Source of the DNA: an uncultured Acidobacteriota bacterium
Lineage (GTDB): Bacteria; Actinomycetota; Acidimicrobiia; Spongiisociales; ZC4RG35
Direction of reading: 5' to 3'
Length of the DNA: 64,000 bases
Assembly: GCA_963734115.1 (NCBI GenBank)
Contig: CAVTFV010000008.1
Coordinates: 211,581-275,580, forward strand
The translations under genes were made by a program, and so were the position numbers. The notes beneath the pieces were generated by a model. That model was not told the origin of the DNA and ran no database searches. It was given only the letters and a program-made list of their open reading frames with translations. Position 1 is the first letter of the stretch; each line of letters begins with the position of its first letter. Shown here in pieces: positions 25,930 through 42,462 of the stretch.

Positions 25930-27038
25930 CGCCTCGCTCCAGCCACTGAATCGAGCACCCGCACCACCCCCCGGAAGTCACTGACGCTAGCGGCGGGCAA
26001 TAGCCGATCGATGCTCGGCATCACCGCCTGCATGCCACGCGTCAGCGGCTGATATGAGGCCCTCGCCGCGAGGGGGTTGAGCCAGATCACCTGATGGACC
26101 GATCGGGCGAGTCGGGCCATTTCCGACGAGAGGACGGCGGGGTCGCCGCAATCCCAGCCGTCGGAGAGAATCATCACGACCGGGCCGCCCCTGGCCAGAC
26201 GACGGCTCCACCGTCGATTCCACTCGGCGAGAGCGTCACCGATCTGGGTCCCCCCCGACCAGTCGGTCACTCGATCGGCGACGCGGGCCAGTGCGGCCTT
26301 GGTGTCCCGACGGCGCATGTCCTCGGTGATGCGGCTGAGATGGGTGGAGAAGGTGAAGATCTCGACTTCACGCAGCCGACGCTGGGCAGCGTGGGCGAAT
26401 ACGAGGAATATGTCGGCGTACTTCTCCATCGACCCGGAGATGTCGGCGATGATGATGAGGGGGCGCTCCTTCCGCCGGCGCTGCTTCCAGCTCATAGTCA
26501 TCATGTCCCCGGTCGGTCCCACCGCGTCCCGCAGGGTGCGGCGCAGGTCGGGCCTGACCCCATCGCCGGGTGTCCATCGCCGGGTCCTGTAGTCGGTGGG
26601 ATGCCACATCATCGTCATCACCAGGCGTCGCGCCTCCTGGAGGTCCTCGTCATCGAGATCGGCGAAATCCCTGGTTGAGATCCTCTCCACCGCCGAGGCG
26701 CCACCCTGGTCGGTGACCGGCGCCACGCTGGACCCGGCCGAGCCCTGGATCGCATAACTCGACGCGTCGGTGCCCGGCTCATCCGGGTGCCGGTCGACCC
26801 ATGATGGCAGGAGGCGCCCGAAGAAGATCTCGAACTCCCGGTCGAACACCGGGATCTGATCGGGGTCGGTGACGGTCAACGAGCGCAGAGCGGCTTCGGC
26901 CTGCGACCGCCGGCTCATGTCGACCATGGAGAGGGCGCGGGCCATGTCGGTGGTCTGGTCGGAGGTGACCGTGAGACCGCGATTACGCAGGGCCGCTGAG
27001 AAGAGACTCAATTGGTCGATCAGCCCGGGCCGGCTCAT
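25926..27038 (-). CDS. coxE: VWA-domain CoxE-like accessory protein
   Basis: DISGSM MIDAS motif, C-terminal VWA. The start ATG overlaps the coxD stop (ATGA). Confidence 0.85.
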
Positions 27039-27913
27039 CCCACCAAGCTGTCGACTCCGGCGGACCGGACCATGTCGATGTCGTCCTTGTACTTGAGCAC
27101 GACGCCGATCGTGCGGTCGATCGTTGCCGGAGACAGCTCGCCCGCCTCCAGCAAACGCAACGACTCTGCCCAATCGAGTGTTTCTGCCACTCCGGGGGGC
27201 TTGAAGAGCTCCATCTCCCTGAGCCTCCTCATCGCCTCGGCCAGAGATACCGCCAGACGCCCCTCGAGATCGGGCACCTTGCGGATGATGATCTCGGCCT
27301 CCTTGGCCGCGGTTGGATAGTCGATCCAGTGATACACACAACGACGTTTGAGGGCGTCGTGTATCTCCCGGGTGCGGTTCGACGTGAGGACGACGATCGG
27401 CCTGCTCAGTGCCTTGATCGTTCCGATCTCGGGAATCGTTATCTGGAAATCGGACAGCAACTCGAGGAGAAAGGCCTCGAACTCCTCGTCCGCCCGGTCC
27501 AACTCGTCGATGAGAAGCACCGGACGGTGCCCCTCGGTGCTGGCCTCGATCGCCTGGAGCAGGGGACGAGCGATCAGGTAGTCCCGACTCATTATGTCGT
27601 CGGGGGTGGCTTCAGCGCCCTGTCCCCTTGCCTCGAGAAGGCGGATCGCCATCATCTGGCGGGCGTAATCCCACTCGTATAGCGCCTGGCCGACGTCCAG
27701 ACCCTCATAGCACTGGAGACGGATGAGCTCGGTCCCGCCCATGGCCGCCAGGACCTTGGCCACCTCGGTCTTGCCAACTCCGGCCTCCCCCTCCAGGAAA
27801 AGCGGTCTCCCCAGTTGAACTGCGAGGTGGATGGCCACTACGAGGCTCTCGTTGGCGAAGTAGTCCTGCTCGTCGAGACGTTTCTCGAGCTCGCCGATCG
27901 TGTCGGGGATCAC
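27035..27913 (-). CDS. coxD: MoxR-family AAA+ ATPase (CoxD-like)
   Basis: Walker A GEAGVGKT, Walker B LLIDELDRAD, and the MoxR C-terminal domain. Confidence 0.9.
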   Translation of the reverse strand: MIPDTIGELEKRLDEQDYFANESLVVAIHLAVQLGRPLFLEGEAGVGKTEVAKVLAAMGGTELIRLQCYEGLDVGQALYEWDYARQMMAIRLLEARGQGAEATPDDIMSRDYLIARPLLQAIEASTEGHRPVLLIDELDRADEEFEAFLLELLSDFQITIPEIGTIKALSRPIVVLTSNRTREIHDALKRRCVYHWIDYPTAAKEAEIIIRKVPDLEGRLAVSLAEAMRRLREMELFKPPGVAETLDWAESLRLLEAGELSPATIDRTIGVVLKYKDDIDMVRSAGVDSLVG

Positions 27914-27948
27914 CGGATGAAGCCTAAACGTCGCCGTACAATCGGTCT

Positions 27949-28872
27949 GTGTACGGGGTGGCGCTCACGGTTCTCGCCTGTCTCCGCTCGGGAACCCGCG
28001 CCGACGTGGCGTGGCTGGTCGAGGCGGAAGGATTGCCCGTGACGGACTGGTCCGATGCAGTCGTGTTCACCCCTGGCGGCGGCCGGATCGGAGGATTGGC
28101 GGGCGGCGCAGTGGATGGGCAGCTGGCCGACGAGGCGGGTCGAAGGGACGTCGGTCGACTGGTCGATATCGAGGTGAGCGAGATCGACGCCTTGATCGCC
28201 GGCCTGTCGTCGGCCGGCTCCGCAAGATGCCTGCTCGTGCCGGCAGACACGCTTCCTCGAGAACTCTGGGACCTGGCGGTCGCACGGGAGCCGATCTGTC
28301 TGATCTGCAATGTCGAAGGCGGCGAAGTGGGAGACGTCAGCGTCTACACGACCGCCACGGCGGCGGGTGGCGGGGAAATCGTCGAGGGTTTGTTCGCTGC
28401 CGGCAAGAGCGGGTCGACAGTCACCGGAGATCAGGTGATCTCTGTGTTTCGGGCAGTGCCTCAGTTGGTCGTGGTGGGGGACACCGACGTCGCCACCGCT
28501 CTGGTCGAGCTGGCATCCCGGATCGGCTGGAACGCCCGCCTGGCGGCCGACTCCGGTTCGGCCACCGGCATGATCGCCACGCTGTCGGGTCAGGACAAGG
28601 TCGTGGTGACCGCGCACGATCTCGAGTTTGCGGGGACTGCGCTCAAGGCTGCCCTGGAGAGCGATGCCGGCTACATCGGGGCGATGGGCGCTCGACGGAT
28701 GCAGGAGAACCGTGCCGACTGGCTCGCCTACCGGGGGGTGACGGATCTCTCTCGAATCCATGGTCCCGCCGGACTCGACATCGGCGCCGAAACACCGGCC
28801 GAGATCGCTGTCTCGATCCTCGCCGAAGCGATCGCAGAGAACGCTGGGAATCATGTCGTTTCCAGCAGCTAG
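27949..28872 (+). CDS. XdhC/CoxI-family molybdoenzyme maturation factor (intact)
   Basis: 307 aa with the C-terminal YIGAMGARRM...GLDIGAETPAEIAVSILAE signature. Divergent from coxD. Confidence 0.85.
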   Translation: MYGVALTVLACLRSGTRADVAWLVEAEGLPVTDWSDAVVFTPGGGRIGGLAGGAVDGQLADEAGRRDVGRLVDIEVSEIDALIAGLSSAGSARCLLVPADTLPRELWDLAVAREPICLICNVEGGEVGDVSVYTTATAAGGGEIVEGLFAAGKSGSTVTGDQVISVFRAVPQLVVVGDTDVATALVELASRIGWNARLAADSGSATGMIATLSGQDKVVVTAHDLEFAGTALKAALESDAGYIGAMGARRMQENRADWLAYRGVTDLSRIHGPAGLDIGAETPAEIAVSILAEAIAENAGNHVVSSS

Positions 28873-28937
28873 CCATGGAGTACACAGGTGACCGTCACTA
28901 CACTCGATGATGGACGAGACCTTCCCGGGAGGACTGG

Positions 28938-29189
28938 ATGACCGCCCAATACGAGACCACGGCAGAGGCCCTGAAGTCGATTTGGATCAGCAGTCACGAC
29001 CACGACCCGCTCGACGAGGACTGCAGCCCCACCAAGGCCTGTCGCAACATGAAAGACGTCACATTCGACGGTTATGCCGAGCCGGGCACTGACCTCGGCG
29101 CCGCCTGGCGGGCCAAGCTGGCGCGGGAGGGAAAGCTGTCCACGTCCGGGGGGAGTGTCCGCGACCTGATCCTCGGTCAGGGCGAATAG
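28938..29189 (+). CDS. hypothetical small protein (83 aa)
   Basis: ATG-initiated ORF between xdhC and the second MoxR gene. I do not recognise a domain. Confidence 0.4.
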   Translation: MTAQYETTAEALKSIWISSHDHDPLDEDCSPTKACRNMKDVTFDGYAEPGTDLGAAWRAKLAREGKLSTSGGSVRDLILGQGE

Positions 29190-29230
29190 CCCTGGGCAAC
29201 GACGACCTCTCACCCACGCGGGATCACGCC

Positions 29231-30121
29231 GTGAGCGCCGATGGGGCATCCACACCGCCTGCGAGCGTCGATGAGGTGATCGCGCGTCTCGGCGAGGGTC
29301 GCTATCTGGCCGACCGCGGCCTGGCCACCGCCGTCTACGTCGCGCTGACACTGGGTCGCCCGCTCCTCCTCGAAGGTGAAGTGGGAGTGGGCAAGACAGA
29401 AGTGGCCAAGGTTCTGGCCACGGTCCTGGGGCGCCGCCTCATCCGTCTCCAGTGCTACGAGGGGATAGACACCAACCAGGCCCTCTACGAGTGGGACTAC
29501 GCCCGACAGATGCTCCAGATCAGGGCGCTGTCGGAACGCGAGCTGGCCGAAGACCATGTCGACAAGCTCTTCGGACCCAAATTCCTGCTCGAGCGTCCGC
29601 TGCTGACCGCGGTCAGGGAAGGTGACCGGGCGGTGCTGCTCATCGACGAGATCGATCGGGCCGACGACGAATTCGAGGCCTTCCTGCTCGAGTTGCTGTC
29701 CGACTATCAAATCACCATCCCGGAGATCGGCACTATCTCTGCCTCAGCCCCCCCGCTTGTCATCCTCACATCCAATCGCACCCGCGAGCTACACGACGCG
29801 TTGAAGCGGCGGTGTCTCTATCACTGGGTCGGATATCCGAGCGCCGAACGCGAAGTGGAGATCGTCCTGGTCCGTGCCCCTGGTGCCAGCGAAACCCTGG
29901 CCCGCAAGGTCGTCGCCGCCGTCGGCCATCTCCGCCAGCTCGATCTGGCAAAGCCACCCGGGGTTGCCGAGACGCTCGACTGGGTCGCCACTTTGAACGT
30001 TCTCGGCTCGGAAGACCTCGATGCCGGGACCGTGGAGGACACCCTCGGTGCCGTGGTCAAGGAGCGCGACGACCTCGAAACGGTCCTCGACCACCTCGAG
30101 GAGCTCGTCGCCGATGGCTGA
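29231..30121 (+). CDS. MoxR-family AAA+ ATPase, second copy
   Basis: Walker A GEVGVGKT, Walker B LLIDEIDRAD. About 60% identical to the first copy by eye. Confidence 0.9.
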   Translation: MSADGASTPPASVDEVIARLGEGRYLADRGLATAVYVALTLGRPLLLEGEVGVGKTEVAKVLATVLGRRLIRLQCYEGIDTNQALYEWDYARQMLQIRALSERELAEDHVDKLFGPKFLLERPLLTAVREGDRAVLLIDEIDRADDEFEAFLLELLSDYQITIPEIGTISASAPPLVILTSNRTRELHDALKRRCLYHWVGYPSAEREVEIVLVRAPGASETLARKVVAAVGHLRQLDLAKPPGVAETLDWVATLNVLGSEDLDAGTVEDTLGAVVKERDDLETVLDHLEELVADG

Positions 30122-31265
30122 ACAGTCGATCGCGGTTGATGACCGGACGTCTTTCATAGGGATGCTGGTCGGCTTCGGGGACGAGCTGCGGGACGCTGGA
30201 GTCCCGGTCGGCTCGGGAGATGTCCTCACCTATTGCGCAGCGATGGCGTTGCTCGACCCGGGCGATGTCCTCGATCTCTACTGGGCCGGCCGAACCTCGC
30301 TGGTGACACGGCGGGATCACATCCCGACATACGACCGTGTGTTCCGTACCTATTTCCTCGACCAACCTGCGAAGCCGAAGGGTCCGGCCCTCGCGATTCT
30401 GAAGCAGTCGCTCATCGAGAACCAATCGGTGATCGAGGTACCCGCCGCCGAGCCGGCACGGCCGGGCAAGGAGGAGGAGGCACGACTCGGGCTGATGGCC
30501 TCCGACATCGAGATCTGGCGGAACAAGGCATTCGCCGCCTGCACCGATGAGGAGCTCGCGGCGTTGCGCCGGATCATGAACCAGGTCAAAGTGATCCCAC
30601 CCCGACGACGCTCCCGACGAACGACCCAGTCTCGGTCCGGGAGCAGACCCGACCTTCGTCGCACCGTCCGCACCACGATGCGCACTCATGGCGAGCCCTC
30701 GGAGTTGTTTTGGCGACAGCGACGGCTTAAGACGCGACCGTTGGTCCTCATCCTCGATGTGTCGGGCTCGATGGCCGATTACTCCCGCAACCTCCTCCAG
30801 TTTGCCTATTCGACCCGGCGGGCTGCCACCAAGGTCGAGGTGTTCTGCTTTGGGACGCGGCTCACTCGCATCACGCGGGCCTTGGAGCGACGTCGCCCTG
30901 ACGATGCTCTGGACCAAGCGGCGAAGTCGGTCTTCGACTGGGAGGGCGGTACCCGGATCGGCGAATCGATCGACACCTTCGTCCGCCAGTGGGGTCGCAG
31001 GGGGATGAGCCGGGGAGCGATCGTCGTCATCTGTTCGGATGGGCTCGATCGTGGTGACCCGGCGGTCCTGGCCGCGGCCATGGAGCGGCTGTCCCGGCTA
31101 TGCCACAAGGTGGTGTGGATGAACCCCCACAAGGGCAATGACCCTGAGTTCAAGCTGACGACGCTGGGGATGATGGTTGCGGAGCCATACATCGACTTGC
31201 TTCTCTCCGGGCACGATCTGGCCAGTCTCGAGGAGCTCGCCGAGCGGCTGCCGGAGTTGAGGTGA
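30114..31265 (+). CDS. VWA-domain CoxE-like protein, second copy
   Basis: I placed the start at the internal ATG (MAEQSIAVDD), overlapping the MoxR stop by 8 nt. DVSGSM MIDAS motif. Confidence 0.85.
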   Translation: MAEQSIAVDDRTSFIGMLVGFGDELRDAGVPVGSGDVLTYCAAMALLDPGDVLDLYWAGRTSLVTRRDHIPTYDRVFRTYFLDQPAKPKGPALAILKQSLIENQSVIEVPAAEPARPGKEEEARLGLMASDIEIWRNKAFAACTDEELAALRRIMNQVKVIPPRRRSRRTTQSRSGSRPDLRRTVRTTMRTHGEPSELFWRQRRLKTRPLVLILDVSGSMADYSRNLLQFAYSTRRAATKVEVFCFGTRLTRITRALERRRPDDALDQAAKSVFDWEGGTRIGESIDTFVRQWGRRGMSRGAIVVICSDGLDRGDPAVLAAAMERLSRLCHKVVWMNPHKGNDPEFKLTTLGMMVAEPYIDLLLSGHDLASLEELAERLPELR

Positions 31266-31269
31266 GCCA

Positions 31270-31563
31270 GTGAGATGGAGTGTCTCCCTCCAGACCGAGG
31301 GTGATCGTGTGATCGAGCTAGACGAGGTGGTCGAGCTCGCTGACGCGGTGGCCGCCAGCGATGGGATCGCTTCGGGGATGGGCACCTATGGATACGGGGT
31401 CCAGGTCGTCGTTGAGGCCGATGACAGTGGTCACGCCGTGGAGCTGGCCATGGCGGTGCTCGCCGGGGCCGTGGAGAAGTCGGGTCTCCCGTCCTGGCCG
31501 GTGGTGACCATGGAGACCATCGCCGAGGACGAAGAGATGTTCTACGACATGGTCGAAGAGTGA
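31270..31563 (+). CDS. hypothetical small acidic protein (97 aa)
   Basis: The ORF lies 4 nt after the VWA gene. No recognisable motif. Confidence 0.45.
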   Translation: MRWSVSLQTEGDRVIELDEVVELADAVAASDGIASGMGTYGYGVQVVVEADDSGHAVELAMAVLAGAVEKSGLPSWPVVTMETIAEDEEMFYDMVEE

Positions 31564-31605
31564 TCCGTCTCGGATCGCTCGCCGGGTATCCCTTCGAGGG
31601 GCCGC

Positions 31606-32034
31606 GTGTTCTCGGGGGTTGGACCGCGCCGGAAGCGCCCGCCGTGTTTCGCGGTCATGTACAAGCCGGACCCGTCCCGTAAGCCCGAGGAGTACGGCGG
31701 TCCTCTACGTCGGGCATTCCGACGATCTCTCGACGCGAACGGCTCCCGTTCAACCACCCCAGCGCCGCATGCTGGCTCGAGCCGGGTGGGTGGGAAGAAG
31801 TTCGACCTCTACATCGGCACCTACGAGGCGCCCGGCGCCAACTCTGCGGCACCGCGAGCAGATCGTCCGAGAGCTGGTCGCGATCTACAAGCCGGGCTGC
31901 AACCCCGATCAGTACGACCAGGCCTGGGAGGATCACTGGATCGGGGATTACCAGACCCCGGGCACCACCGGCCCGCTGACGACTCGACGAGAGCCGCCTG
32001 GGGCCGGTGGCTGAAGATACCGACTAAGGCGTGA
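31606..32034 (+). pseudogene. decayed ORF with coding-like segments alternating between two frames and an internal repeat (AVMYKPDPSRKPEEYGG / VAIYKPGCNPDQYDQAW)
   Basis: ORFs 31606..32034 and 31619..32014 overlap in different frames. Each carries plausible segments (a YVGHSDDLSTR-like segment in one frame) and low-complexity junk in the other. Confidence 0.3.
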
Positions 32035-32876
32035 TCACCAGGGTGTCGAGAACGTCCTGCAACTCGGTCACGTCCTCCTCCGGTGACGATCCGGGCGCCC
32101 AGCTCGCCTCGATCATGACCGGGGTGCCCTCCACATCGAGGAACCAGTATTCGACCATATCGGCTGGGTCGTACCAACGCTCGTGGTCGAAAACGGGGCC
32201 CGTCCAGGCCGGTTTGACGTCACCGCCGCACCCGGCAGGCACCTCTCCGACCAGGTGGTACCCGTTGTGGCCGAAGGCATTGACCGGCGCCAACGCCTCC
32301 CGGACCGTCAATCCATTGGTGGCGATCTGGTTGGCCAGATCGGCCGCCGTCGTCCCCGCCGCCACCGGAGCGGTCGGCTCACATACCGATGACCACACCT
32401 CGTCGACCTCGACGACCAAAAGCGACAACAGAGTGCTCGCCGCCACCACCCTCTTTTAGCGCCCCGGATGAAAACACGTCCGTCCACCCGTCACCTTCGA
32501 TGACGAACGTGCCACGAGTCGCCGTCTCCTCGTTGCCGTCGGTGTCGGCGAAGTAGGCGCCGGGGGCGAGGGGCTGAAACTCGTCCGTCAGTTCAGTGGC
32601 ATTCGGGGCCGGCTCGGCCACCGAGGTGTCGTCCCTGGTCAAGAACAGGACGAGCCCTGCGACCAGGATCACCGCCGCCGCCGCCGCGATCCCGACCAGG
32701 GGGCCCCGCCGGCGATTGCGGTCCGCCTGGACCTCAGTCGGTCTGTCATCGATCTGCATTTCCGTTCTCCTCTCGAGAAGGGTCGTGAGGACGGGCACAT
32801 CCACAGGCTCGAGGGCGTTCAGGTCCGGCAGAGGATTTGCCTTGCGGACCATGCGATCGATCTGATCGTGTGTCAT
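32024..32876 (-). pseudogene. anti-sigma-like membrane protein with extracytoplasmic domain, copy 1 (one frameshift near 32440)
   Basis: MTHDQIDRMVRKANPLPD...TM helix (GPLVGIAAAAAVILVAGLVLFL) in the frame of ORF 32379..33437. The C-terminal domain continues in the frame of ORF 32024..32449. Total length is 3n+1. Confidence 0.6.
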
Positions 32877-33437
32877 GTCGCTCCTTCCTCGGCGACCGGA
32901 GGGGAAGGGATCGGCTTGATGAGGGGCTGGAGAGCCCGAGCGAGTCTCTGGTAGGAACGGTGGATTCTCTGGTCGACCGCGGACCTGGTCATGCCCATGA
33001 TCTCGGCGATGTCGTCCCTGGGCAGATCCTCCCAGGCGTAGAGCATCACGATCTCGCGGTCTCGTCGGGCTCAGGTTCCTAACCGCCGCTGCGACGTCGG
33101 CGTCGTCAGAGCTCTGGACGACGAGGAACGCCGGGTCGACCGGGGGAGCGACACCCAGGTTGCGCAACTTCTCGTCGAGACGTGATCTGCGACGAAAAGA
33201 TCGGGTGTGATTGGAGACCACCTTGCCCGCGATGCCGTAGATGTAGAGGAGGGTCTTGGGCGGCGGTGGAATCTCGTCGATCCGGCGCCATACCACCAGG
33301 AATATCTCGGCACAGACGTCGTCGGCATCGTGTGCTGCGACCCTTCGTATGCAGTAGGCGCGCACCTTCAGCGAGTGCTCGGCCCAAATCGCTTCGAAGC
33401 GAGCCCTCCGCTCCATGTCCACCGTCGTCGTCATCAA
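32873..33437 (-). pseudogene. ECF (sigma-70 family) sigma factor, copy 1 (frameshift between region 2 and region 4 near 33065)
   Basis: Region 2 (FLVVWRRIDEIP...LLYIYGIAG) is in one frame. Region 4 (DREIVMLYAWEDLPRDDIAEIMGMTRSAVDQRIHRSYQRL) is in another. The stop overlaps the anti-sigma ATG (ATGA). Confidence 0.65.
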
Positions 33438-33522
33438 TCAGTTCCTGTCCGGATACGACACCCCGTTGACAGGATTCTGTTCGAATCTCCACCCCTATGC
33501 CTGTAGGCGGGGATACAAATGA

Positions 33523-33552
33523 GGAACGGGTCGGCGTGTGCCGACCCGTTCC
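33523..33552 (-). terminator. perfect 13-bp GC-rich hairpin (GGAACGGGTCGGC-loop-GCCGACCCGTTCC) downstream of copy 2; candidate intrinsic terminator
   Basis: Sits in the roughly 150-bp spacer between copy 1 and copy 2, about 40 nt after the copy-2 stop. On the minus strand it is followed by UCAUUUGUAU. Confidence 0.4.
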
Positions 33553-33590
33553 GTGGATAAATCGATGGTGGCTGCCCGACTAGGGGGTGA

Positions 33591-34427
33591 TCACCAGAGT
33601 GTCGAGCACCGCTTGGAGCTCGGCCACATCCTCTTCCGGGGAGCTGGCGAACGAGGCCGCTTCGACCATGACCGGGGTCCCCTCCACATCGAGGAACCAG
33701 TAATCCACGACCTGACCGGTGCCTGGTAGAAGCGCCCGAATGTGGGTCCTTCCCAGACCGGGACTCTGGTCGCCCAGCGCACCCGGTAGGGATCTCGACC
33801 ACCAGGTGGTAGCCCGTCATGGCCAAAGGCAGTGACCGGTGCCAACGCCTCCCGGATTGTGAATCCAGCGGCGGCGAACTGGTTGGCCAGGGTCCTCCGC
33901 AGTCGATCCCGGCAGCCAGGGGTTCACCACCGCCACACGCCGGCGACCACACCTCGTCGACCTGGACGACCAGGAGCGAGACAAAGTCCTCGCCAAATGC
34001 CTTTCTCGCCCCCGCTGGCATGCGATGACCACCCGCTGTCTTCGATCACGAAAGTGCCTCCGAGCGACGACGCCTCGTCTCCGTCGGTGTCGACGAAGTA
34101 GGCGCCGGGCGCGAGCCCGAATCCATCTCGTCTGGGCTGATCCGGGTCGCATTCGGGGCCGGCTCGGCCACCGGGCGTGTTATCCTTGGTCAGTAAGAAG
34201 ACGAGCCCTGCGATCAGGATCACAGCCGCCGCCGCGATCCCGACCAGGGGGCCACGCCGGCGATTGCGGTCCGCCTGGACCTCAGTCCCGGGTCTGTCAT
34301 CGATTTGCATTTCCGTCCTCCTCTCCAGAGGGGTCGTGAGGACAGGCACATCGACGATCTCGAGCGTGCTCGGGTCCGGGATCGGGTTCACCCGGCGGAC
34401 CATCTCTCGGATCTGGTCGTGCGTCAT
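33591..34427 (-). pseudogene. anti-sigma-like membrane protein, copy 2 (heavily decayed C-terminal domain)
   Basis: MTHDQIREMVRRVNPIPD...TM in the frame of ORF 33924..34988. The C-terminal domain is fragmented across ORFs 33434..34021 and 33591..33845. Confidence 0.55.
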
Positions 34428-34988
34428 GTTCACTCCTTCCTCGGCGATCGGAGGGGAATTCAGTGAACTGATCTCCAGGACGGGCACCAGGGCCCGGGAG
34501 AGCTTTTGATAGGCGCGGTGGATCCGCTGATCGACGGCGGCCCTCGTCATGCCCATCACATCGGCGATCTCTGCCCGGGACAGGCCCTCCCAGACGTCGA
34601 GCATCACGATCTCCCGGTCGACGGGCTTGAGCCGTCGGACCGCGTCCGTCACGACCTTGTCGTCGGCGCGCTGCACGACGACGAGCATCGGGTCGGCGGC
34701 AGGCGCCATCCCGAGGTTGGTGAGCTTGGTGTGGAGACGGCCCCTTCGATAGAAGGCTCGCGATCTGATTCGACAGCGATTTTGCGGGCGATCCCGTAGA
34801 GACAAGGAAGGGTCTTGGGGGCCGGCGGTATCTCGTCGATGCGCCGCCACACGACGAGAAACGTCTCGGCGCAGGCGTCCTCCGCATCGGCCGACGAGGC
34901 GCGCCGCAGGCAATAGGCCAGCACCTGGTGCCGGTGTGCGCGCCAGATCGCCTCGAATCGAGACCTGCTGGTCGGTCTGCGAAGTCAT
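34424..34988 (-). pseudogene. ECF sigma factor, copy 2 (frameshifted; region 4 reads through into the anti-sigma frame)
   Basis: Region 2 is in ORF 34649..34924 (FLVVWRRIDEIPPAPKTL). Region 4 is in ORF 33924..34988 (DREIVMLDVWEGLSRAEIADVMGMTRAAVDQRIHRAY). There is no stop before MTHDQ. Confidence 0.6.
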
Positions 34989-35118
34989 TGCCCCTTAGTG
35001 TCCACCCGTGGTGGATCGCTGACGAGATTCTTGCTCAGATCTCGTGTCATGGGTCGCGGTCACCCGGACACAAACGGGTTGCCGGAACACCGGTCAGGTG
35101 ATCCGGAGGGGAAAGAGA

Positions 35119-35143
35119 TGGGCCGGGTCGGCCCCGGCCCATC
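35119..35143 (-). terminator. perfect 10-bp hairpin (ATGGGCCGGG-TCGGC-CCCGGCCCAT) about 35 nt after the stop of the last small membrane protein; candidate terminator of the cox operon
   Basis: GC-rich stem followed on the minus strand by CUCUUUCCCCUCC. Confidence 0.35.
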
Positions 35144-35176
35144 TCGACTAAGAGCACGGAGAGGATGCGACTCGAC

Positions 35177-35588
35177 CTACGAAGGCTCTGACGTATCGGC
35201 CAGGGGGGCGTGGGCCCTGCTCCCTGGGCCGTCCGGCATGTAGCCGATGGCGTCATGCAGACGTGAGCGGCGACGACCGGATGCGGGTACCGCCGGGCCT
35301 CGCTCCGGCACCGTCTCGGGGTCGTAGGTGGCCCCGACCACGATCTTCTCGGCCATCCCATATAGGAGGGGGAGTGCGGCTGCGACGACGCCTCCCGTGC
35401 GGTTCACGTGCTCGAGATTGCCTTCGATCGAAGCGGCGTTGCCGCCGATCTTCTGCACCAGGTCGTTGCACTCCTCGAGATTGGTGGCGATCCGGGTGAG
35501 CTGCCCCCCGACGATCCATAGATAGATCGCCAGCCCGGCGATGAGCAGGACGATGTCGACGACGGTGAAGATGCACCAGGTTGCTCAT
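35177..35588 (-). CDS. small single-pass membrane protein (DUF948-like architecture), 5th of a tandem array; 1-nt frameshift just after the start
   Basis: ATG at 35588 with AAGGTG 6 nt upstream, overlapping the previous stop (ATGA). Removing one base near 35570 gives MSNLVIFTVVDIVLLIAGLAIYLWIVGGQLTRIATNLEECNDLVQKIGGNAASIEGNLEHVNR, continuous with ORF 35177..35458. Confidence 0.5.
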
Positions 35589-35878
35589 GAGCGCACCTTC
35601 CCCAGCACCCGGCCCAGGAAGAGATGGTGCTCGAGACCCTCTGCGAGGACCAGGTCGACTCCGGCAGCAGTGGTGTTCAGCAGCTCGGCATCAGCGGTGT
35701 TGGCCTCGGCCTGGGTCAGGGTCGCTTTGATGTTCTTGACTCTCTTGTCGATTCTGTGGACGAGGAGCACAAGGATCGTGAGCAAGAGCGCTACGGCGAC
35801 CACGACGGCGAGGCCGGCCCAGTTGGCGATCCGCCACAGCGTCTCCTGATTCTCGGTCAGGGCAAAGATCACGGTCAA
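35585..35878 (-). CDS. small single-pass membrane protein (DUF948-like), 4th of array
   Basis: 97 aa with TM helix WAGLAVVVAVALLLTILVLLV followed by a polar helical region. Confidence 0.55.
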   Translation of the reverse strand: MTVIFALTENQETLWRIANWAGLAVVVAVALLLTILVLLVHRIDKRVKNIKATLTQAEANTADAELLNTTAAGVDLVLAEGLEHHLFLGRVLGKVRS

Positions 35879-36135
35879 CCTCCCAACCTCTGCCGGCCCC
35901 GCTTCAAACCCTCGATCACGTTGATCGCCATGGTGTTGGTGGTTGCCAGGTCGGCCAACGCCGCGGTGTTTCGCACCGACTCCTGGAGGCTTTCGTCGAT
36001 CAGCTGGGCCTCGTTCCCGATCTTGCGGGCCAGGACCAGGATCGGCACCACCAGCGCGACCACGACCAGGACGACGACGATCCCGATGATGTATCCGACC
36101 AGCCAGCCCGTGTTTCCCTCGAATAGTTCGCTCAT
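35875..36135 (-). CDS. small single-pass membrane protein (DUF948-like), 3rd of array
   Basis: 86 aa with TM helix WLVGYIIGIVVVLVVVALVVPILVLA followed by a polar helical region. The start overlaps the upstream stop. Confidence 0.55.
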   Translation of the reverse strand: MSELFEGNTGWLVGYIIGIVVVLVVVALVVPILVLARKIGNEAQLIDESLQESVRNTAALADLATTNTMAINVIEGLKRGRQRLGG

Positions 36136-36359
36136 ATCGATTCGCAGAAGTCGCTGACGGGCTTGAGGTTGGCGTTGACCGAGCCCACCACCGCGGGCAC
36201 CGTGCTGGTCTTGTCGGCCACCACTCCGACGCCGCCGGTGAGGGCCCGGAGCGTCCCGAGAGTGGCGCTGAGGTGGCCGATGACCCGCATCAGGCCGAGG
36301 GCCGCCGCGGCGATGATGAGTGTCGCGATCATCAGGGTCACGATTGCTGCTGCAGGCAT
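36132..36359 (-). CDS. small single-pass membrane protein, 2nd of array
   Basis: 75 aa with TM helix AIVTLMIATLIIAAAALGLM. Confidence 0.5.
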   Translation of the reverse strand: MPAAAIVTLMIATLIIAAAALGLMRVIGHLSATLGTLRALTGGVGVVADKTSTVPAVVGSVNANLKPVSDFCESI

Positions 36360-36374
36360 ATGACTCGTCCTCTC

Positions 36375-36629
36375 CTAACCCAGCAACTTCGCCACGGAGC
36401 CGGCGTAGCGGACTGCGCCGGTGGAAACGTCTTCGATCGCCTTGTCGGTGACCGCCAGCAGCTCAGGCACCCTGTCGACCTCGCCGATCAGGGCGACGCC
36501 ACCGCCGAGGATCTCATCAGAGGCACCCCTGATCCGCTCGAGAGCTGCCAGCACCCGATTGAGAAGTGCGACCAACACCGGCACCACCACCAGCAGCAGC
36601 ACCGCATTTCCGATCCACCACCAAGTCAT
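36375..36629 (-). CDS. small single-pass membrane protein (DUF948-like), 1st of array
   Basis: I placed the start at the internal ATG. MTWWWIGNAVLLLVVVPVLVALL TM helix followed by a polar region. It begins 10 nt after coxG. Confidence 0.55.
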   Translation of the reverse strand: MTWWWIGNAVLLLVVVPVLVALLNRVLAALERIRGASDEILGGGVALIGEVDRVPELLAVTDKAIEDVSTGAVRYAGSVAKLLG

Positions 36630-36639
36630 CAGCGCCTCC

Positions 36640-37221
36640 TCAGATCCGGTCGGGTTGGTAGGGGAGAAAGAACCGGCGCCCGACTCTCTTGAGCGCCATC
36701 CATGCCGCCGCGATGGCGATACCGAAGCCACTGGCGGATTTCGTCTGGATCTGGTCGGGTGAGACACCGCGGTCGTAGGCATCGATCCGCGTCTGCATGT
36801 TCGTGGCGAAGTCCCGCATCATCACCGCGCTCACGTCGCTGATCATGCCCCGCCCGTACTGCGCAGCGGCGCCGGACAACTCCAGGTCCTGCTCCACCTC
36901 CACCCTCGTTCCGTTGGCGGTGGGGACGAGGCGGGCAGTCAGCCCGAGGTTCGCCTGACCCCGGCCCTTGTCGTCGGCGCCCGAGGCGTCGACGACGATG
37001 GTCCTGTTGGCGTGATCGCGCTCCTTTACCGCGGCTTGTCCGGCGAATTGCATCTGGACTGGACCGAGCCGGATGCCGACATTCCCTGCGTATTGATCGG
37101 GGCCGATCTCGTCGGTGAGCGAGGCGCCAGGGAGACAGGCGGCGACCTGGGGGATGTCCTGACAGAACTCCCACACCTTGTCTACGTCGACCGGCACCTC
37201 GAAGTCATGTTTGATCAGCAT
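36640..37221 (-). CDS. coxG: CO dehydrogenase subunit G (SRPBCC family CoxG)
   Basis: 193 aa beginning MLIKHDFEVPVDVDKVWEF, with a C-terminal hydrophobic anchor. Confidence 0.85.
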   Translation of the reverse strand: MLIKHDFEVPVDVDKVWEFCQDIPQVAACLPGASLTDEIGPDQYAGNVGIRLGPVQMQFAGQAAVKERDHANRTIVVDASGADDKGRGQANLGLTARLVPTANGTRVEVEQDLELSGAAAQYGRGMISDVSAVMMRDFATNMQTRIDAYDRGVSPDQIQTKSASGFGIAIAAAWMALKRVGRRFFLPYQPDRI

Positions 37222-37222
37222 C

Positions 37223-38173
37223 TCATCCCCTGACTGTCATGTACGCGGAGGGGTCTTTCTCGAAGGCCGCCCGGCATCCCGGGCAGCAGAAGTAATAGGT
37301 CTGACCCTCGTATTCGAACGGGCGACTGCTCTCATCGGCAGGCACGGTCATGCCGCAAACGAGGTCTACGGCGGTGCCTGCGGCTGCGTGCTCATGGCCA
37401 TGACCGGAATGGTGGTGCTCGATGGGCATCGCGTTCGATTCCGCCAGGGGCGCGGGGTCGAAGGCACCCTTGGCCCGAAGCTCCACCAACTCGGCAAGAA
37501 CGGAGACTGCGATTTCGGGATGTGACGTGTGGCCGAGGTCGAGGCCTACGGGGACCCTCACTTGATCCAAGAGGTCACGGGGGACACCCCGTTCGGCGAG
37601 GTAGCCGAGGACCGCCTCGCCACGCTTGGACGAGGCTACGAGCCCCACGAAGGCCGGGCGCGCGTTCACTGCCTGCTCGACCGCCTCCTCGTCACCGTGA
37701 CCCTGAGTGGCGACCACCACGACCGACCAGCTGCCGACATGAGCGGTCTTGAAGTCGGGTACATCGACCAAGTCAGCGCGCCAGCCGACCCCGGCCGCAA
37801 GCTCCACCAGGGTGGCGGCCATTGGGGATCTGCCCACGACCACCAGGTGGGGGCTGGGAAGTACTGGCTCGACATAGAGCTGCAGCGCGCCCTCGGACTG
37901 GCACGACATCTGGACGAACGTCATGCCTTCGGCAACCTCGCCGAACTGGTCGGGGTCGCCGAGCAAGATCAGACGCGGGACCCGTTCTTCGATGGCGCGC
38001 TGCGCCTCCCGAACGACGACCGGCTCGGCACAGGCCCCGCCGATCCAGCCGTGCATCTGGCCGTCGGCAGTGATGATGGCCCGCGACCCTTGCTGCCCTG
38101 AGGAGGGCGCCTGGCGCCAGACCACGGTGGCCAGGGCGAATTCGACGCCCTGGCGGGCGAGATCGCTGGCCAT
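37223..38173 (-). CDS. XdhC/CoxF-family maturation factor fused to a C-terminal YHS (TRASH-like) metal-binding domain
   Basis: XdhC core (VPVGLDLGHTSHPEIAVSVLAE), a His-rich linker (HHHSGHGHEH), then CGMTV...YEGQTYYFCCPGCRAAFEKDP. The start has GGAGG 9 nt upstream. This gene was artificially joined to coxL in the 1183-aa ORF 37223..40774. Confidence 0.8.
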   Translation of the reverse strand: MASDLARQGVEFALATVVWRQAPSSGQQGSRAIITADGQMHGWIGGACAEPVVVREAQRAIEERVPRLILLGDPDQFGEVAEGMTFVQMSCQSEGALQLYVEPVLPSPHLVVVGRSPMAATLVELAAGVGWRADLVDVPDFKTAHVGSWSVVVVATQGHGDEEAVEQAVNARPAFVGLVASSKRGEAVLGYLAERGVPRDLLDQVRVPVGLDLGHTSHPEIAVSVLAELVELRAKGAFDPAPLAESNAMPIEHHHSGHGHEHAAAGTAVDLVCGMTVPADESSRPFEYEGQTYYFCCPGCRAAFEKDPSAYMTVRG

Positions 38174-38208
38174 CTCGATCATCCTCCACCCATCGGCAGG
38201 CTGGGCAC

Positions 38209-40593
<2,385 letters not shown>

Positions 40594-40597
<4 letters not shown>

Positions 40598-41118
40598 CCT
40601 TGATCCTCCAGCTTCTTTGCCGCCCACATGACCGCCTTGACGATGTTCTGGTAGCCGGTGCAGCGGCAGAGATTGCCGCTCAATGCCCATCGGATCTCGT
40701 CCTCGGTCGGGTTCGGGTTCTCCTCGAGCAGGGCCTTGGAGGCCATCATCATCCCGGGAGTGCAGAACCCGCACTGGAGCCCGTGCTCCTCCTTGAACCC
40801 TTCCTGTATGGCGTGCAGCTCACTGGGACCTGCCAGGCCCTCAACGGTCATCACGTCATGCCCGTCGGCTTGGACGGCGAACATCGTGCAGCTCTTCACC
40901 GGCGTGCCGTCGAAGAGCACGGTGCATGCCCCGCAGTTGGAGGTGTCGCAGCCGGTGTGGGTGCCGGTGAGATGGAATCCCTGACGGAGGAGATGGGCGA
41001 GGACGAGACGGGGCTCGACCACGGCTGTTCGGGTCTCGCCGTTGACCGTGACTGTGATCTGCCTCGTCGGCGTCTCCGCGGCCGCCCCCGGGCTGACCTC
41101 TTGGAACAGGCTGGTCAT
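40594..41118 (-). CDS. coxS: CO dehydrogenase small [2Fe-2S] subunit CoxS
   Basis: 174 aa with both cysteine clusters ([11 protein letters not shown] and [10 protein letters not shown]...CRCTGY). Confidence 0.95.
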
Positions 41119-41119
41119 G

Positions 41120-41995
41120 TCAGGCCGCCTCCTCTTCCGATCGAATCAACCCGGTCAGGATCCTGCTGGTGAAGACGCTGACCAGCTGCTTCTTGTAGGA
41201 GGCGCTGCCTCGATGATCGGTCCGGGGTTGGGCTGCCTGCGCCGCCAGCGAGGCGGCCTCACCGATCACATCGGCTGTGAGCGAACTGCCAACCAGCACC
41301 TGGGCGGCATCATCGGCTGAGATGGTCGAAGGACCCACTCCGGTCAGGCCAATGCCCGCCCTGGTGACCTCACGGCCGTTTCGGTCGACGGAAACGGCGA
41401 CCCCGACCGTGGCGAAATCGCCCACGCGGCGCTCCAACTTCAGATAGCCGCCAGCCGGCTCGCCCTGGGGGGCGGGAGCGATCGCCTCCACCACCACCTC
41501 GTCGTAGGCGAGGTTTGTCTGGAACGGGCCGCGGACGAGCTCCTTGACCGGGATTGTCCGCCGGCCACCTTGACCCTGTGCCACAACCGAGGCATCCAAC
41601 GAGACCATCACCGATGCCCAGTCTCCCTGTGGGTCGGCGTGACACAGGGAACCGACCAGAGTGCCGCGATTTCGCACGATCGGGTCGGCGACGAGTGGCG
41701 CCGCCGCAGCCATGGTGGGCTGATGGCCGGCCAGCAACGAAGAGCGCTCCAGGTCGGCGTGACGGCACAGCGCCCCGACGTGGATCGATCCGTCGGCATC
41801 GATCCGGTGATAGTCCAAACCGGCAATCTCGTTGATGTCGACCAGCATCTCCGGGGAAGCGAACCGGAGCTTGATCATCGGGACCAGGCTCTGGCCTCCG
41901 GCCAGCACCTTGGCATCGCCACCCCCGTCGGCCAGGAGCGCGGAAGCTTCCTCGATCGACCTGGGAGCCTCGTAGCGAAATCGAGAGGGGTAGAT
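41120..41995 (-). CDS. coxM: CO dehydrogenase medium FAD-binding subunit CoxM; probable ATC initiation codon
   Basis: FAD-binding motifs ([28 protein letters not shown]). The N-terminus (I)[20 protein letters not shown] aligns to M-I-P-G-S-F-D-Y... of characterised CoxM, so the ATC at 41995..41993 sits at the initiator position. AAGGAGG lies 5 nt upstream. There is no in-frame ATG/GTG/TTG for 75 codons upstream. Confidence 0.85.
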
Positions 41996-42015
41996 GTCTG
42001 CCTCCTTGGTTTGCT

Positions 42016-42462
42016 TCAGGTCTGTGGCCCGAGCTGGTCTTGGGGCCCGGGCTGGGGGGCGGGAGATTCGGGCTCGGGCTGACGGAACGAAGACTGGGGG
42101 TCGGGGACGGCAACGGGTAGGGATTCCGCGGTCGGGTCGGGCCGGGGTTGCTGATGGGGCGGCCAGGGGCCCTGAACCGGCTGACCGGCGACCTTGAAGT
42201 AGTCGATGATCTCCGGCCACGCCCAGATCGTGGGGCTCTCGCCCTCCTTGGGGGCGTTCTCGATCAACTCATACAGCCGGGGATTGCCGCGGCTGTGCCC
42301 GGACGTCTCGACTGCCAAGGTCCACCTCCCAGTCTCGTGGGCCAACCGTTTGCAAACGAACGGCCGGACCACCAATTGCCACAAAGGATTCCGGCTGCAC
42401 CGGAATCCTGCCCGCCGGAACCTTACGCATTCGGCGCCCGTCGCGTCGGCCTTCTTGGCCAT
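42016..42462 (-). CDS. hypothetical protein with Pro-rich C-terminal tail
   Basis: ORF 42016..42522, with the start taken at the internal ATG ([11 protein letters not shown]). The segment [45 protein letters not shown] looks coding-like. This is a weak call. Confidence 0.25.

Follow-up and report, generated by a model that had tools for sequence, protein, structure and literature searches.

In soil and marine Actinomycetota, Mo-CODH acts as a major sink of atmospheric CO, and the wiring of this soluble enzyme to the membrane quinone pool has been explained only recently, through CoxG and in one model organism. CoxG is described as carrying menaquinone between membrane and CODH, with membrane contact required for quinone exchange, and a C-terminal transmembrane (TM) anchor has been reported for the M. 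smegmatis protein; the statement in an earlier note on the present DNA that CoxG tethers CODH is therefore outdated, the protein now being described as a shuttle and not just a tether (PMC12202499). Similarly, the DUF948 family, which the same note had compared with the proteins discussed below and whose function it held to be unknown, includes FacZ of S. aureus, in which an Arg-rich motif in the disordered tail binds the partner GpsB (PMC10914604).

The stretch of DNA analysed here (64,000 nt in full, referred to as the window) carries on its minus strand the gene order coxM-coxS-coxL (form I)-xdhC/YHS-coxG, followed by five small genes, S1 to S5, and then by a 13-bp GC hairpin:

41120..41990, minus strand: coxM, FAD-binding medium subunit, start uncertain (PF00941 and PF03450 matches on ORF 41120-42220)
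40594..41118, minus strand: coxS, [2Fe-2S] small subunit (PF01799, E 7e-34; PF00111)
38209..40597, minus strand: coxL, form I, with the AYRCSFR active-site loop in translation (PF01315, PF02738 and PF20256 over two frames)
37223..38212, minus strand: xdhC/coxI-family maturation factor fused to a C-terminal YHS/TRASH metal-binding domain (PF02625, PF13478, PF04945)
36640..37221, minus strand: coxG, SRPBCC/START quinone carrier (PF06240, E 4e-16)
36375..36629, minus strand: S1, 84 aa, N-terminal TM helix and cytoplasmic helical part, motifs WWIGN, LLNRVLAALERIR and GAVRYAGSVAKLL
36132..36359, minus strand: S2, 75 aa, N-terminal TM helix, invariant His29, C-terminal LKPV(R/S)DFCESI
35875..36135, minus strand: S3, 86 aa, TM helix and long helix, NTAAL layer, C-terminal GLxRGRxRLGG, paralogue of S4
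35585..35872, minus strand: S4, 95 aa, GTG start, TM helix and one long helix, invariant C-terminus EGLxHHLFLGRV
35177..35588, minus strand: S5, 136 aa with one inserted base removed, TM helix, helical hairpin, disordered tail with PASGRRRSRLHDxVGY
35115..35145, minus strand: GC-rich hairpin, 13-bp stem, 31 nt past the S5 stop, followed by UUUCCCC

The features of a form I Mo-CODH cluster are all found in the window, namely adjacent coxM, coxS and coxL with their Pfam domains, the AY(X)CSFR loop and an SRPBCC/START CoxG, which matches M. smegmatis CoxG (PDB 8uds_D) at E 5e-25. The GTG start of the xdhC-YHS gene overlaps the coxL stop, and the coxL reading frame is broken by a 1-nt insertion (an extra A at about 38634, by comparison with loci L097 and L014). 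The coxG stop and the ATG of S1 are 10 nt apart, with GGAGG in front of the ATG, S2 starts 15 nt after S1, the S2/S3 and S4/S5 junctions are ATGA overlaps, and the GTG of S4 at 35872 lies 2 nt past the S3 stop, which is the commonest spacing among relatives; read from this GTG, the S4 product is 100% identical to database protein P0285, while an alternative start, TTG at 35878, would lengthen the product to 97 aa and make the junction a 4-nt overlap. The 4-nt overlaps that the earlier note saw throughout thus apply to two or three junctions, with gaps of 10-15 nt at others. The S5 frame is broken by an extra G at about 35574, at codon 5/6 (alignment with L001, L002 and L007; the G is absent in close relatives), so that the 1-nt correction called for in that note is indeed needed, but its site is after codon 5 and not directly after the third codon. 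The 86-nt hairpin region has a folding energy of -39.2 kcal/mol (z = -3.4; equal stability in 0/200 shuffles) and, together with the UUUCCCC, is likely to be the operon terminator; an Rfam scan of the whole window gave no match. The extent first proposed for the array, from just past coxG to the hairpin, agrees with these coordinates and with the fold. On this sequence evidence, S1 to S5 are best regarded as genuine accessory proteins, predicted to be co-transcribed and probably translationally coupled, that belong to the form I Mo-CODH gene cluster of actinobacteria.

The array is widely conserved, as 4304 S5 homologues were found, with a homologue in at least 576 species genomes, together with 3022 homologues of S4. 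The survey of related cox loci that had been suggested at the outset decisively found the array in other cox loci: in a synteny sample of 80 loci, taken from representatives of species in several actinobacterial orders, coxG-S1-S2-S3-S4-S5 occurs in fixed order in 76, with gaps of -4 to +16 nt, and a form I CoxL with AYxCSFR is present in 71. Every longer contig examined has the array after coxG with equal sizes and order, and the carrier taxa include Acidimicrobiia, Nocardioides, Micromonosporaceae, Pseudonocardiaceae and Actinomadura. In PLSDB plasmids, S5 has no homologue and the CoxG matches belong to other XOF systems. The short metagenome contigs bearing distant S5 homologues yielded no informative gene neighbourhood. 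ECF sigma genes lie 3' of the array in Acidimicrobiia; an anti-sigma or regulatory role was rejected, since this neighbourhood is lineage-specific while the link to coxG is general. The searchable literature yielded no account of the array, in agreement with the earlier remark that it is not a described part of cox operons.

Selection on the five genes is visible at the nucleotide and protein levels. The pN/pS values of S1-S5 are 0.09-0.18 (S1, 0.09) vs 0.15 for CoxG, and their amino-acid identity with distant orthologues is 0.63-0.78 vs 0.63 for CoxG, so by these sequence measures S1-S5 are conserved as strongly as CoxG or more so. The mean column identity of the S1 orthologues (n=31) is 80%, S2 is 75 aa long in nearly all orthologues (max 77), S5 is intact in relatives at 118-136 aa, and third-position differences exceed second-position differences 2-4x in S1-S5. 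Because the five ORFs are conserved with this coding signature and low pN/pS, they go beyond what chance would give, and the initial claim holds that these are true genes, added to the cox operon and co-directional with it. It is very improbable that they are spurious or decaying, that is, long ORFs of high-GC DNA in which the S5 and coxL frameshifts mark a dying operon. The 1-nt insertions in coxL and S5 and the many overlapping alternative ORFs of this 65% GC region would fit such decay, but intact homologues exist in thousands, the codon-position and pN/pS signatures are those of purifying selection, and both coxL and S5 are intact in the close relatives L097 and L014. Since many of the close relatives come from MAG records with the label MFD, which we take to be long-read assemblies, the 1-nt insertions are more likely to stem from consensus indel errors. 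For the family, the spurious-ORF reading is already contradicted.

The neighbourhood of coxG raises a different alternative, in which S1-S5 form a membrane-associated maturation scaffold that helps CoxD (MoxR AAA+), CoxE (VWA) and XdhC/CoxF-type factors to supply the [CuSMoO2] site with Cu (and S) and has no part in electron transfer. The XdhC + YHS/TRASH fusion is usually immediately upstream of coxG, and two sets of coxD/coxE/xdhC genes flank the cluster. In addition, candidate ligand residues occur in the array, including the invariant His-His of S4 (EGLxHHLFLGRV), a near-invariant Cys40 in S5 (NLEEC), and the invariant His29 and mostly conserved DFCESI Cys of S2, which would suit metal handling equally well. 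These residues are few, however, and scattered across four different proteins, and Pfam/NCBIfam scans detected no recognised metal-binding domain in S1-S5. The array is also predicted to be co-transcribed with the structural genes and coxG, whereas the coxD/E set is on the opposite strand. Moreover, it keeps its place beside coxG in loci whose coxL-coxG interval showed no xdhC-like ORF (L040, L052, L053, L058, L078, L087, L091 and L092), and its tie is therefore to coxG and not to the xdhC maturation factor. A maturation role is accordingly judged unlikely.

A single strongly hydrophobic segment lies close to the N-terminus of each of the five proteins (19-residue Kyte-Doolittle mean 2.6-3.5), with an excess of K/R on the C-terminal flank of the TM segment, and this bias implies an N-out/C-in orientation, with the helical parts on the cytoplasmic side, on which CoxG and CODH work. 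The 52-56 residues past the TM segment show an in-phase, heptad-type 3.5-residue hydrophobic periodicity in S1-S5, which is greater than in at least 99.8% of shuffles for S1, S2, S3 and S5 and in 95% for S4, and an in-register layer about 20 residues past the TM segment is common to all five (GGGV, GGVG, RNTA, ANTA, GGNA). Hydrophobicity and periodicity therefore bear out the build first read from the ORFs, one N-terminal TM helix followed by a helical segment. AF2 predicts S4 as a single helix (3-94, pLDDT 72) and S5, at low model confidence, as two helices (2-51 and 58-83) in a poorly packed hairpin with a disordered tail containing RRRSR. An isolated long helix such as that modelled for S4 and a poorly packed hairpin such as that modelled for S5 are typical of subunits that would require partners. 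The top PDB matches of the S5 profile are designed antiparallel coiled coils (E 2e-5), and these matches reflect helical periodicity and no homology. PDB profile searches with S1, S4 and S5 found no genuine relative, and Foldseek of the low-confidence S5 model against PDB gave nothing at E<=0.001.

Kinship within the array is narrower than the tandem set of five paralogues that had been proposed. S3 and S4 are paralogous (hhalign probability 99.4%, E 2.7e-21; reciprocal HMM matches at E 2e-9 and 4e-21), while all other pairs are non-significant at hhalign probabilities of 0.2-46%, the best-scoring of them (S1-S4 and S1-S3) being aligned mainly in the N-terminal TM region. An HMM cross-search of the window likewise gave a mutual match between S3 and S4 only, and S1, S2 and S5 are, as judged from these profiles, separate families with a common build only. 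No Pfam or NCBIfam model reached threshold in scans of S1-S5 and their orthologue sets, the sub-threshold matches (VirB8, ATP-synt_B, DUF948, pilin, anti-sigma) were TM-driven, and curated NCBIfam cut-offs gave zero matches or scores far below them. In databases, all five are annotated as 'hypothetical' or with misleading weak COG names. The giant YadA_stalk-repeat proteins P0134 and P0198 match S5; they were rejected as homologues, the match being attributed to repetitive N-rich coiled-coil sequence.

The likeness to DUF948 that had been drawn for all five is architectural only and applies mainly to S5, whose TM helix, cytoplasmic coiled coil and basic disordered tail correspond to the DUF948 architecture, whereas S1-S4 have no tail; membership is not borne out by the Pfam threshold or by hhalign. 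DUF948 (PF06103; gathering threshold 37.2 bits) gave no match at E<=1 to the five proteins of the window, sub-threshold matches to 3/31 S5 orthologues (best E 0.09), 13-16 bits to stand-alone S5-like proteins and 24.3 bits to the fused protein P0199, and no precomputed Pfam domain is present in any of the 120 listed stand-alone S5 relatives. Against WP_032490094, a bona fide DUF948 protein of pAO1, S5 reached an hhalign probability of 9.4% (6.2% with the alignment built by the tool itself) and S1-S4 reached 0.1-5.4%, and the comparison with the 78-aa neighbour of this protein was non-significant. Distant S5-like genes also stand alone outside cox clusters, some with GVGYLD motifs, and the S5 scaffold is therefore not intrinsically CODH-specific. 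These stand-alone genes are one argument for the possibility that S1-S5 are generic DUF948/FacZ-like or stress-type coiled-coil adaptors anchored in the membrane, serving spatial organisation, for instance by recruiting a general cellular partner through the VGY/Arg-rich tail, and linked only loosely to CO oxidation. The FacZ build of S5 as modelled by AF2 (PMC10914604), the sub-threshold DUF948 matches in S5 and its stand-alone relatives, the IMG label 'YoxC' on some relatives, and the pAO1 DUF948 gene, which encodes the ending PATGRRSR and is nicotine-induced along with XOF enzymes (PMC6214936), also agree with it. A cox-independent role is hard to square with a fixed five-gene order right behind coxG in 76 of the 80 loci, and with DUF948 membership failing by both measures this alternative seems distinctly improbable.

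The scaffold or anchor idea appears to be the most plausible reading, and the tail of CoxG suggests where such a scaffold might act. The CoxG tail of the window has a 19-residue Kyte-Doolittle mean of 1.1 (max 0.6-1.5 in 30 orthologues), and array-linked CoxG proteins share a conserved tail (GF.IGLRA.RMAL.RV.RRFFLPYQP) that reads as a weakly hydrophobic basic amphipathic helix, compared with a classical C-terminal TM segment (score 2.5) in the CoxG-like protein of pAO1. Array-linked CoxG therefore seems to have no convincing TM anchor of its own, a contrast drawn with one non-CODH CoxG-like protein and with a statement in the literature. In the proposed mechanism, each array protein would have a TM anchor with a very short outside N-terminus and would send 50-110 residues of amphipathic helix into the cytoplasm, and S1-S5 would assemble into one hetero-oligomeric, membrane-anchored coiled-coil bundle that stands on the cytoplasmic face as a short stalk or platform. 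CoxG and, via CoxG, soluble CoxLMS would dock there, with the basic amphipathic C-terminal helix of CoxG packing on the bundle without spanning the bilayer and the conserved basic tail of S5 (PASGRRRSRL..VGY) serving as a recruiting peptide, so that menaquinone would be extracted, and electrons passed on to the respiratory chain, at a defined position on the membrane. What the sequences show is that the genes are real and conserved, that they are syntenic with coxG, and that their products carry topology signals and helical periodicity; the explanation as a whole, in which the oligomerisation, the partner and the role in docking and electron transfer are all inferred, is a best guess put forward tentatively, with slightly less than even confidence. 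In mycobacterial cox clusters, a different gene, rv0368c, follows coxG and CoxG is functional there (PMC13525633); the need for the array may thus not be universal.

A conserved coxG-adjacent module in hundreds of species that belongs to no described family suggests that membrane-side components have been missed by current models and annotation pipelines. The module also offers a directly testable handle in culturable carriers such as Nocardioides and Actinomadura, and the array is a sequence marker that sets this type of cox cluster apart.

Among known systems, the CoxG coupling of M. smegmatis and O. carboxidovorans shares the coxMSL (form I) and coxG core with the window, but the published model gives CoxG its own C-terminal TM tether and mentions no further membrane subunits, whereas the window combines an amphipathic CoxG tail with five bitopic proteins (PMC12202499). 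FacZ and DUF948 (PF06103; YoxC, COG4768) resemble S5 in their short external N-terminus, one TM helix, membrane-proximal coiled coil and positively charged Arg-rich tail, a likeness extended by weak in-register matches, by 'YoxC' labels among S5 relatives and by the PATGRRSR end of the pAO1 protein vs PASGRRRSR in S5; FacZ differs as a predicted homo-oligomer of cell division in Firmicutes, while S1-S5 are five different proteins in a fixed coxG operon of Actinomycetota. Similarly, ATP synthase b/b' (PF00430) has one N-terminal TM helix and then a single long helix, as do S3 and S4 (for S4, by AF2), and PF00430 matches S4 at 17.6 bits (E 0.004; threshold 28 bits) and 13/31 S4 orthologues below threshold, but S3 and S4 are half as long and lie outside any ATP synthase context, and the EGLxHHLFLGRV end of S4 is unique. 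Many S4 homologues carry the IMG label 'ATP synthase subunit b/b''. CoxB, CoxC, CoxH and CoxK, extra membrane proteins reportedly described by Santiago et al. in 1999 in the cox cluster of O. carboxidovorans, are polytopic and proteobacterial, and are likened to S1-S5 by description only, no similarity having been noticed. A conceptual analogue, again set beside the array by description, is HucM, a membrane-associated helical stalk that, reportedly in the work of Grinter et al. in Nature in 2023, links the soluble mycobacterial [NiFe]-hydrogenase Huc, an oxidiser of trace gas, to the menaquinone pool, as a single protein forming a homotetramer and not as five bitopic proteins. A more far-reaching and rather doubtful version of the stalk reading would make a hetero-pentameric, membrane-anchored coiled-coil stalk the physiological CoxG/Mo-CODH receptor in most non-mycobacterial Actinomycetota; S1-S5 would then be membrane subunits, so far unrecognised, of the machinery that oxidises atmospheric CO, and the stalk, functionally analogous to HucM, might also shape the exit of menaquinone from the bilayer.

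Beside the already known coxMSL/coxG core, the cox cluster in the window contains a membrane module of five subunits that is undescribed and widely conserved, encoded by five small minus-strand genes directly 3' of coxG (S1 to S5, the array).

Cox operon and array (minus strand; cox genes assigned with Pfam)
About 41120-41990, minus: coxM (FAD_binding_5/CO_deh_flav_C)
40594-41118, minus: coxS (Fer2_2)
38209-40597, minus: coxL (Ald_Xan_dh_C, MoCoBD_1/2)
37223-38212, minus: maturation-factor gene of the xdhC/coxI family, with a YHS/TRASH metal-binding domain fused at the C-terminus
36640-37221, minus: coxG (PF06240, E 4e-16)
36375-36629, minus: S1, 84 aa
36132-36359, minus: S2, 75 aa
35875-36135, minus: S3, 86 aa
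35585-35872, minus: S4, 95 aa from GTG (97 aa from an alternative TTG at 35878)
35177-35588, minus: S5, 136 aa once one base is removed
35115-35145: GC-rich hairpin of 13 bp, then UUUCCCC, 31 nt past the S5 stop

The translated CoxL contains the form I loop AYRCSFR, CoxG is matched by the M. smegmatis CoxG crystal structure 8uds_D (E 5e-25, PDB search), and an HMM search of the window finds a single array. As the earlier note described, S1 begins 10 nt past coxG (GGAGG precedes its ATG) and the array ends before a strong hairpin, the 86-nt region of which has a folding energy of -39.2 kcal/mol (z = -3.4). The 4-nt overlaps claimed for the whole array occur as ATGA at S2/S3 and S4/S5; the coxG/S1 and S1/S2 junctions are gaps of 10 and 15 nt, and S3/S4 is a gap of 2 nt measured from the S4 GTG, which follows a correctly spaced GGAGG. 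Directly downstream of the array (32379-34988, minus strand) lie two tandem pairs of ECF sigma and membrane anti-sigma-like genes, a neighbourhood seen in Acidimicrobiia relatives only; one of the two sigma genes encodes region 4 in another frame (32873-33049). The remainder of the cox cluster occupies 25621-32034, and its small ORFs recur as genes without a Pfam match in the related loci L007, L010 and L097.

Rest of the cox cluster
25621-27913, minus: second coxD/coxE/xdhC set
27949-28872, plus: xdhC-like gene
28938-29189, plus: 83-aa ORF
29231-30121, plus: coxD
30021-31265, plus: coxE
31270-31563, plus: conserved 97-aa ORF
31606/31619-32034, plus: ORF of about 131-142 aa

The number of homologues, the S5-type clusters, the codon-position and pN/pS signature and the sharply conserved motifs show that S1 to S5 are real genes. 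At E<=0.01, a collection of 5.8 billion proteins yields 4304 homologues of S5 and 3022 of S4, and phmmer, run over all of 1.84 billion cluster representatives, finds 178 S5-type clusters. Differences between the window and its orthologues cluster at codon position 3, and pN/pS against 15-21 orthologues (amino-acid identity 63-78%) is 0.09 for S1, 0.17 for S2, 0.18 for S3, 0.14 for S4 and 0.15 for both S5 and CoxG. Conserved motifs include WWIGN, LLNRVLAALERIR and GAVRYAGSVAKLL in S1, LKPV(R/S)DFCESI and an invariant His29 in S2 (75 aa long in almost every orthologue, maximum 77), NTAAL and GLxRGRxRLGG in S3, ANTAD and the invariant EGLxHHLFLGRV in S4, and NLEEC, HINRTGGVVAGALPLLYGMAE and the tail PASGRRRSRLHDxVGY in S5.

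The long S5 frame has no usable start in the window, and alignment with three related contigs reveals an extra G at about 35574 (S5 codon 5/6) in the window only, which bears out the 1-nt correction proposed earlier; without this base S5 starts MSNLVIFTVVDIV... and reaches 136 aa, as long as its top homologues in the database. Similarly, coxL is split over two frames by an extra A at about 38634 (CTGC[A]GGCTGG versus CTGCGGCTGG in L097 and L014), and the ECF sigma gene at 32379-33437 likewise appears frame-shifted. The insertions may reflect decay specific to this strain, but the joint occurrence of all three lesions, the intact state of the same genes in the close relatives L097 and L014, and the many MFD-labelled MAG records among the closest genomes, which we take to be long-read assemblies, make consensus/assembly indel errors rather than pseudogenes the probable explanation in S5 and coxL.

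Similar arrays, which the earlier note proposed to seek in other cox loci, are present there. With each GTDB species represented by one genome, a pattern scan detects an S5 homologue in at least 576 species, and among the best 80 of these loci, with genes mapped by phmmer, CoxG and S1 through S5 lie on the same strand in that order in 76 (modal gaps from coxG through S5 of 10, 16, 10, 2 and -4 nt) and an AYxCSFR CoxL is found in 71. Among these 80 loci are representatives of Acidimicrobiia, Nocardioides, Pseudonocardiaceae, Actinomadura, Micromonosporaceae (Rhizocola, Virgisporangium, Planosporangium) and a Mycobacteriales MAG; certain MAG records whose genes are almost identical have "Acidobacteriota" in the title, a label that seems doubtful. 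Every longer contig encoding one of S1 to S5 has the order coxM-coxS-coxL-xdhC/YHS-coxG, followed 3' of coxG by called genes of 84, 75, 86, 93-97 and 118-136 aa. The XdhC-YHS fusion is kept between coxL and coxG in most related loci, not all, and the array still stands behind coxG where no xdhC-like ORF is detected between them (e.g., L052, L078, L091). PLSDB plasmids contain no S5 homologue. The array of a different cox cluster (L096:8676-10978) is a variant with an additional DUF1059-like 61-aa gene and an S5 homologue lengthened to 325 aa, to which a further TM helix and a long coiled-coil module rich in N-x-T have been added; three more uncharacterised genes come next.

No description of S1 to S5 was found in the searchable full-text literature on coxG with Acidimicrobiia, gene clusters, small membrane proteins or stalks, in agreement with the earlier view of the array as an undescribed part of cox operons. 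Recent surveys and the CoxG paper (PMC12202499) cover coxMSL, coxG and coxD/E/F-type genes only, and in the mycobacterial cluster, the experimental model, a different gene is reported to follow coxG (PMC13525633), which would explain why the array went unnoticed.

Each of the five proteins has, as first described, one N-terminal TM helix (19-residue Kyte-Doolittle mean 2.6-3.5) and a helical segment, with a basic residue directly past the TM, 52-56 residues of in-phase 3.5-residue periodicity (exceeding at least 99.8% of shuffles in four proteins and 95% for S4) and, about 20 residues past the membrane, a small/polar layer in register (GGGV, GGVG, RNTA, ANTA and GGNA in S1 to S5). Their description as five paralogues holds for S3 and S4, the only mutual matches in an HMM cross-search, with an hhalign probability of 99.4% (E 2.7e-21) between orthologue profiles. 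All other pairs reach at most 46%: S1-S4 46%, S1-S3 35%, S3-S5 19%, S2-S5 17% (E 1.4e-3, in register), S1-S2 2.7% (E 0.017, in register), S1-S5 2.4%, and S2-S3, S2-S4 and S4-S5 below 1%. Very old common ancestry or a shared packing constraint could each account for the common build, which does not prove paralogy of the five.

None of S1 to S5 reaches a Pfam-A or NCBIfam model. The proposed DUF948 likeness does not amount to family membership because Pfam scores are sub-threshold and hhalign gives 6-9% between S5 and the bona fide DUF948 protein of pAO1, and less for S1 to S4. DUF948 is the top sub-threshold match for 3 of 31 S5 orthologues (best E 0.09) and for distant stand-alone S5-like proteins (13-16 bits versus a cut-off of 37.2), and P0199, the fused S5 variant of L096, scores 24 bits, with the match in the additional module at its C-terminus; IMG names some relatives "YoxC" or "HAMP domain-containing". 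Two giant trimeric-autotransporter (YadA-stalk) proteins, P0134 and P0198, give repeated S5 matches (E 1e-27 and 1e-11), which are attributed to repetitive N-rich coiled coil in both and rejected as homology. The stand-alone S5-like proteins of Pseudonocardiales (L094:10001-10396; P0245, P0229, P0239, P0243, P0268) have between one and three GVGY(L/M)D motifs at the C-terminus, and their genes are located away from cox clusters, in a neighbourhood of the ahpC/aceE/fabD type. Such genes would suit a generic DUF948-like organiser loosely tied to cox, a distinctly unlikely reading of S1 to S5 that fits poorly with the strict synteny.

Together, coxG and S1 to S5 form six consecutive genes whose products combine a membrane-interacting helix with cytoplasmic parts, and the fixed order and number of S1 to S5, several of them start/stop-coupled, is a pattern typical of stoichiometric subunits. 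Array-linked CoxG ends in a conserved basic amphipathic stretch, GF.IGLRA.RMAL.RV.RRFFLPYQP (30 orthologues, L007-L091; window 36640-36740), and its best 19-residue hydrophobicity of only 0.6-1.5 is, by this measure, too weak for a classical TM helix. Mo-CO dehydrogenase (CODH, CoxLMS) is soluble and requires menaquinone exchange with the membrane (PMC12202499). Because of the six membrane-helix genes, the subunit-like pattern and the weakly hydrophobic CoxG tail, we tentatively propose that S1 to S5 could assemble as a hetero-oligomeric, membrane-anchored coiled-coil platform, which would dock CoxG and through it CODH, with the S5 tail as a recruiting peptide. The main rival to the docking platform, and an unlikely one, is a maturation or metal-handling scaffold, which would be favored by the invariant HH in S4, a Cys in S5, a His and a Cys in S2, and the adjacent xdhC-YHS fusion.

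In FacZ, the single DUF948 protein that has been studied, a TM helix is joined to a coiled coil close to the membrane and to a disordered, basic tail in which an Arg-rich motif binds GpsB (PMC10914604). S5 has the same functional look of TM, helical part and disordered tail; its AF2 model (pLDDT 63) has helices at residues 2-51 and 58-83, with a loop between them, ahead of a tail that is disordered. The AF2 model of S4, which draws weak "ATP synthase b" labels, is a single long helix at residues 3-94 (pLDDT 72). The nicotine-catabolism cluster of pAO1 from Paenarthrobacter nicotinovorans (L098) is rich in xanthine-oxidase-family enzymes and includes a CoxG-like gene and, at L098:3441-4067, the bona fide DUF948 gene with a 78-aa bitopic ORF. 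The pAO1 CoxG-like protein has a classical C-terminal TM (score 2.5), unlike array-linked CoxG. [quoted passage not shown]
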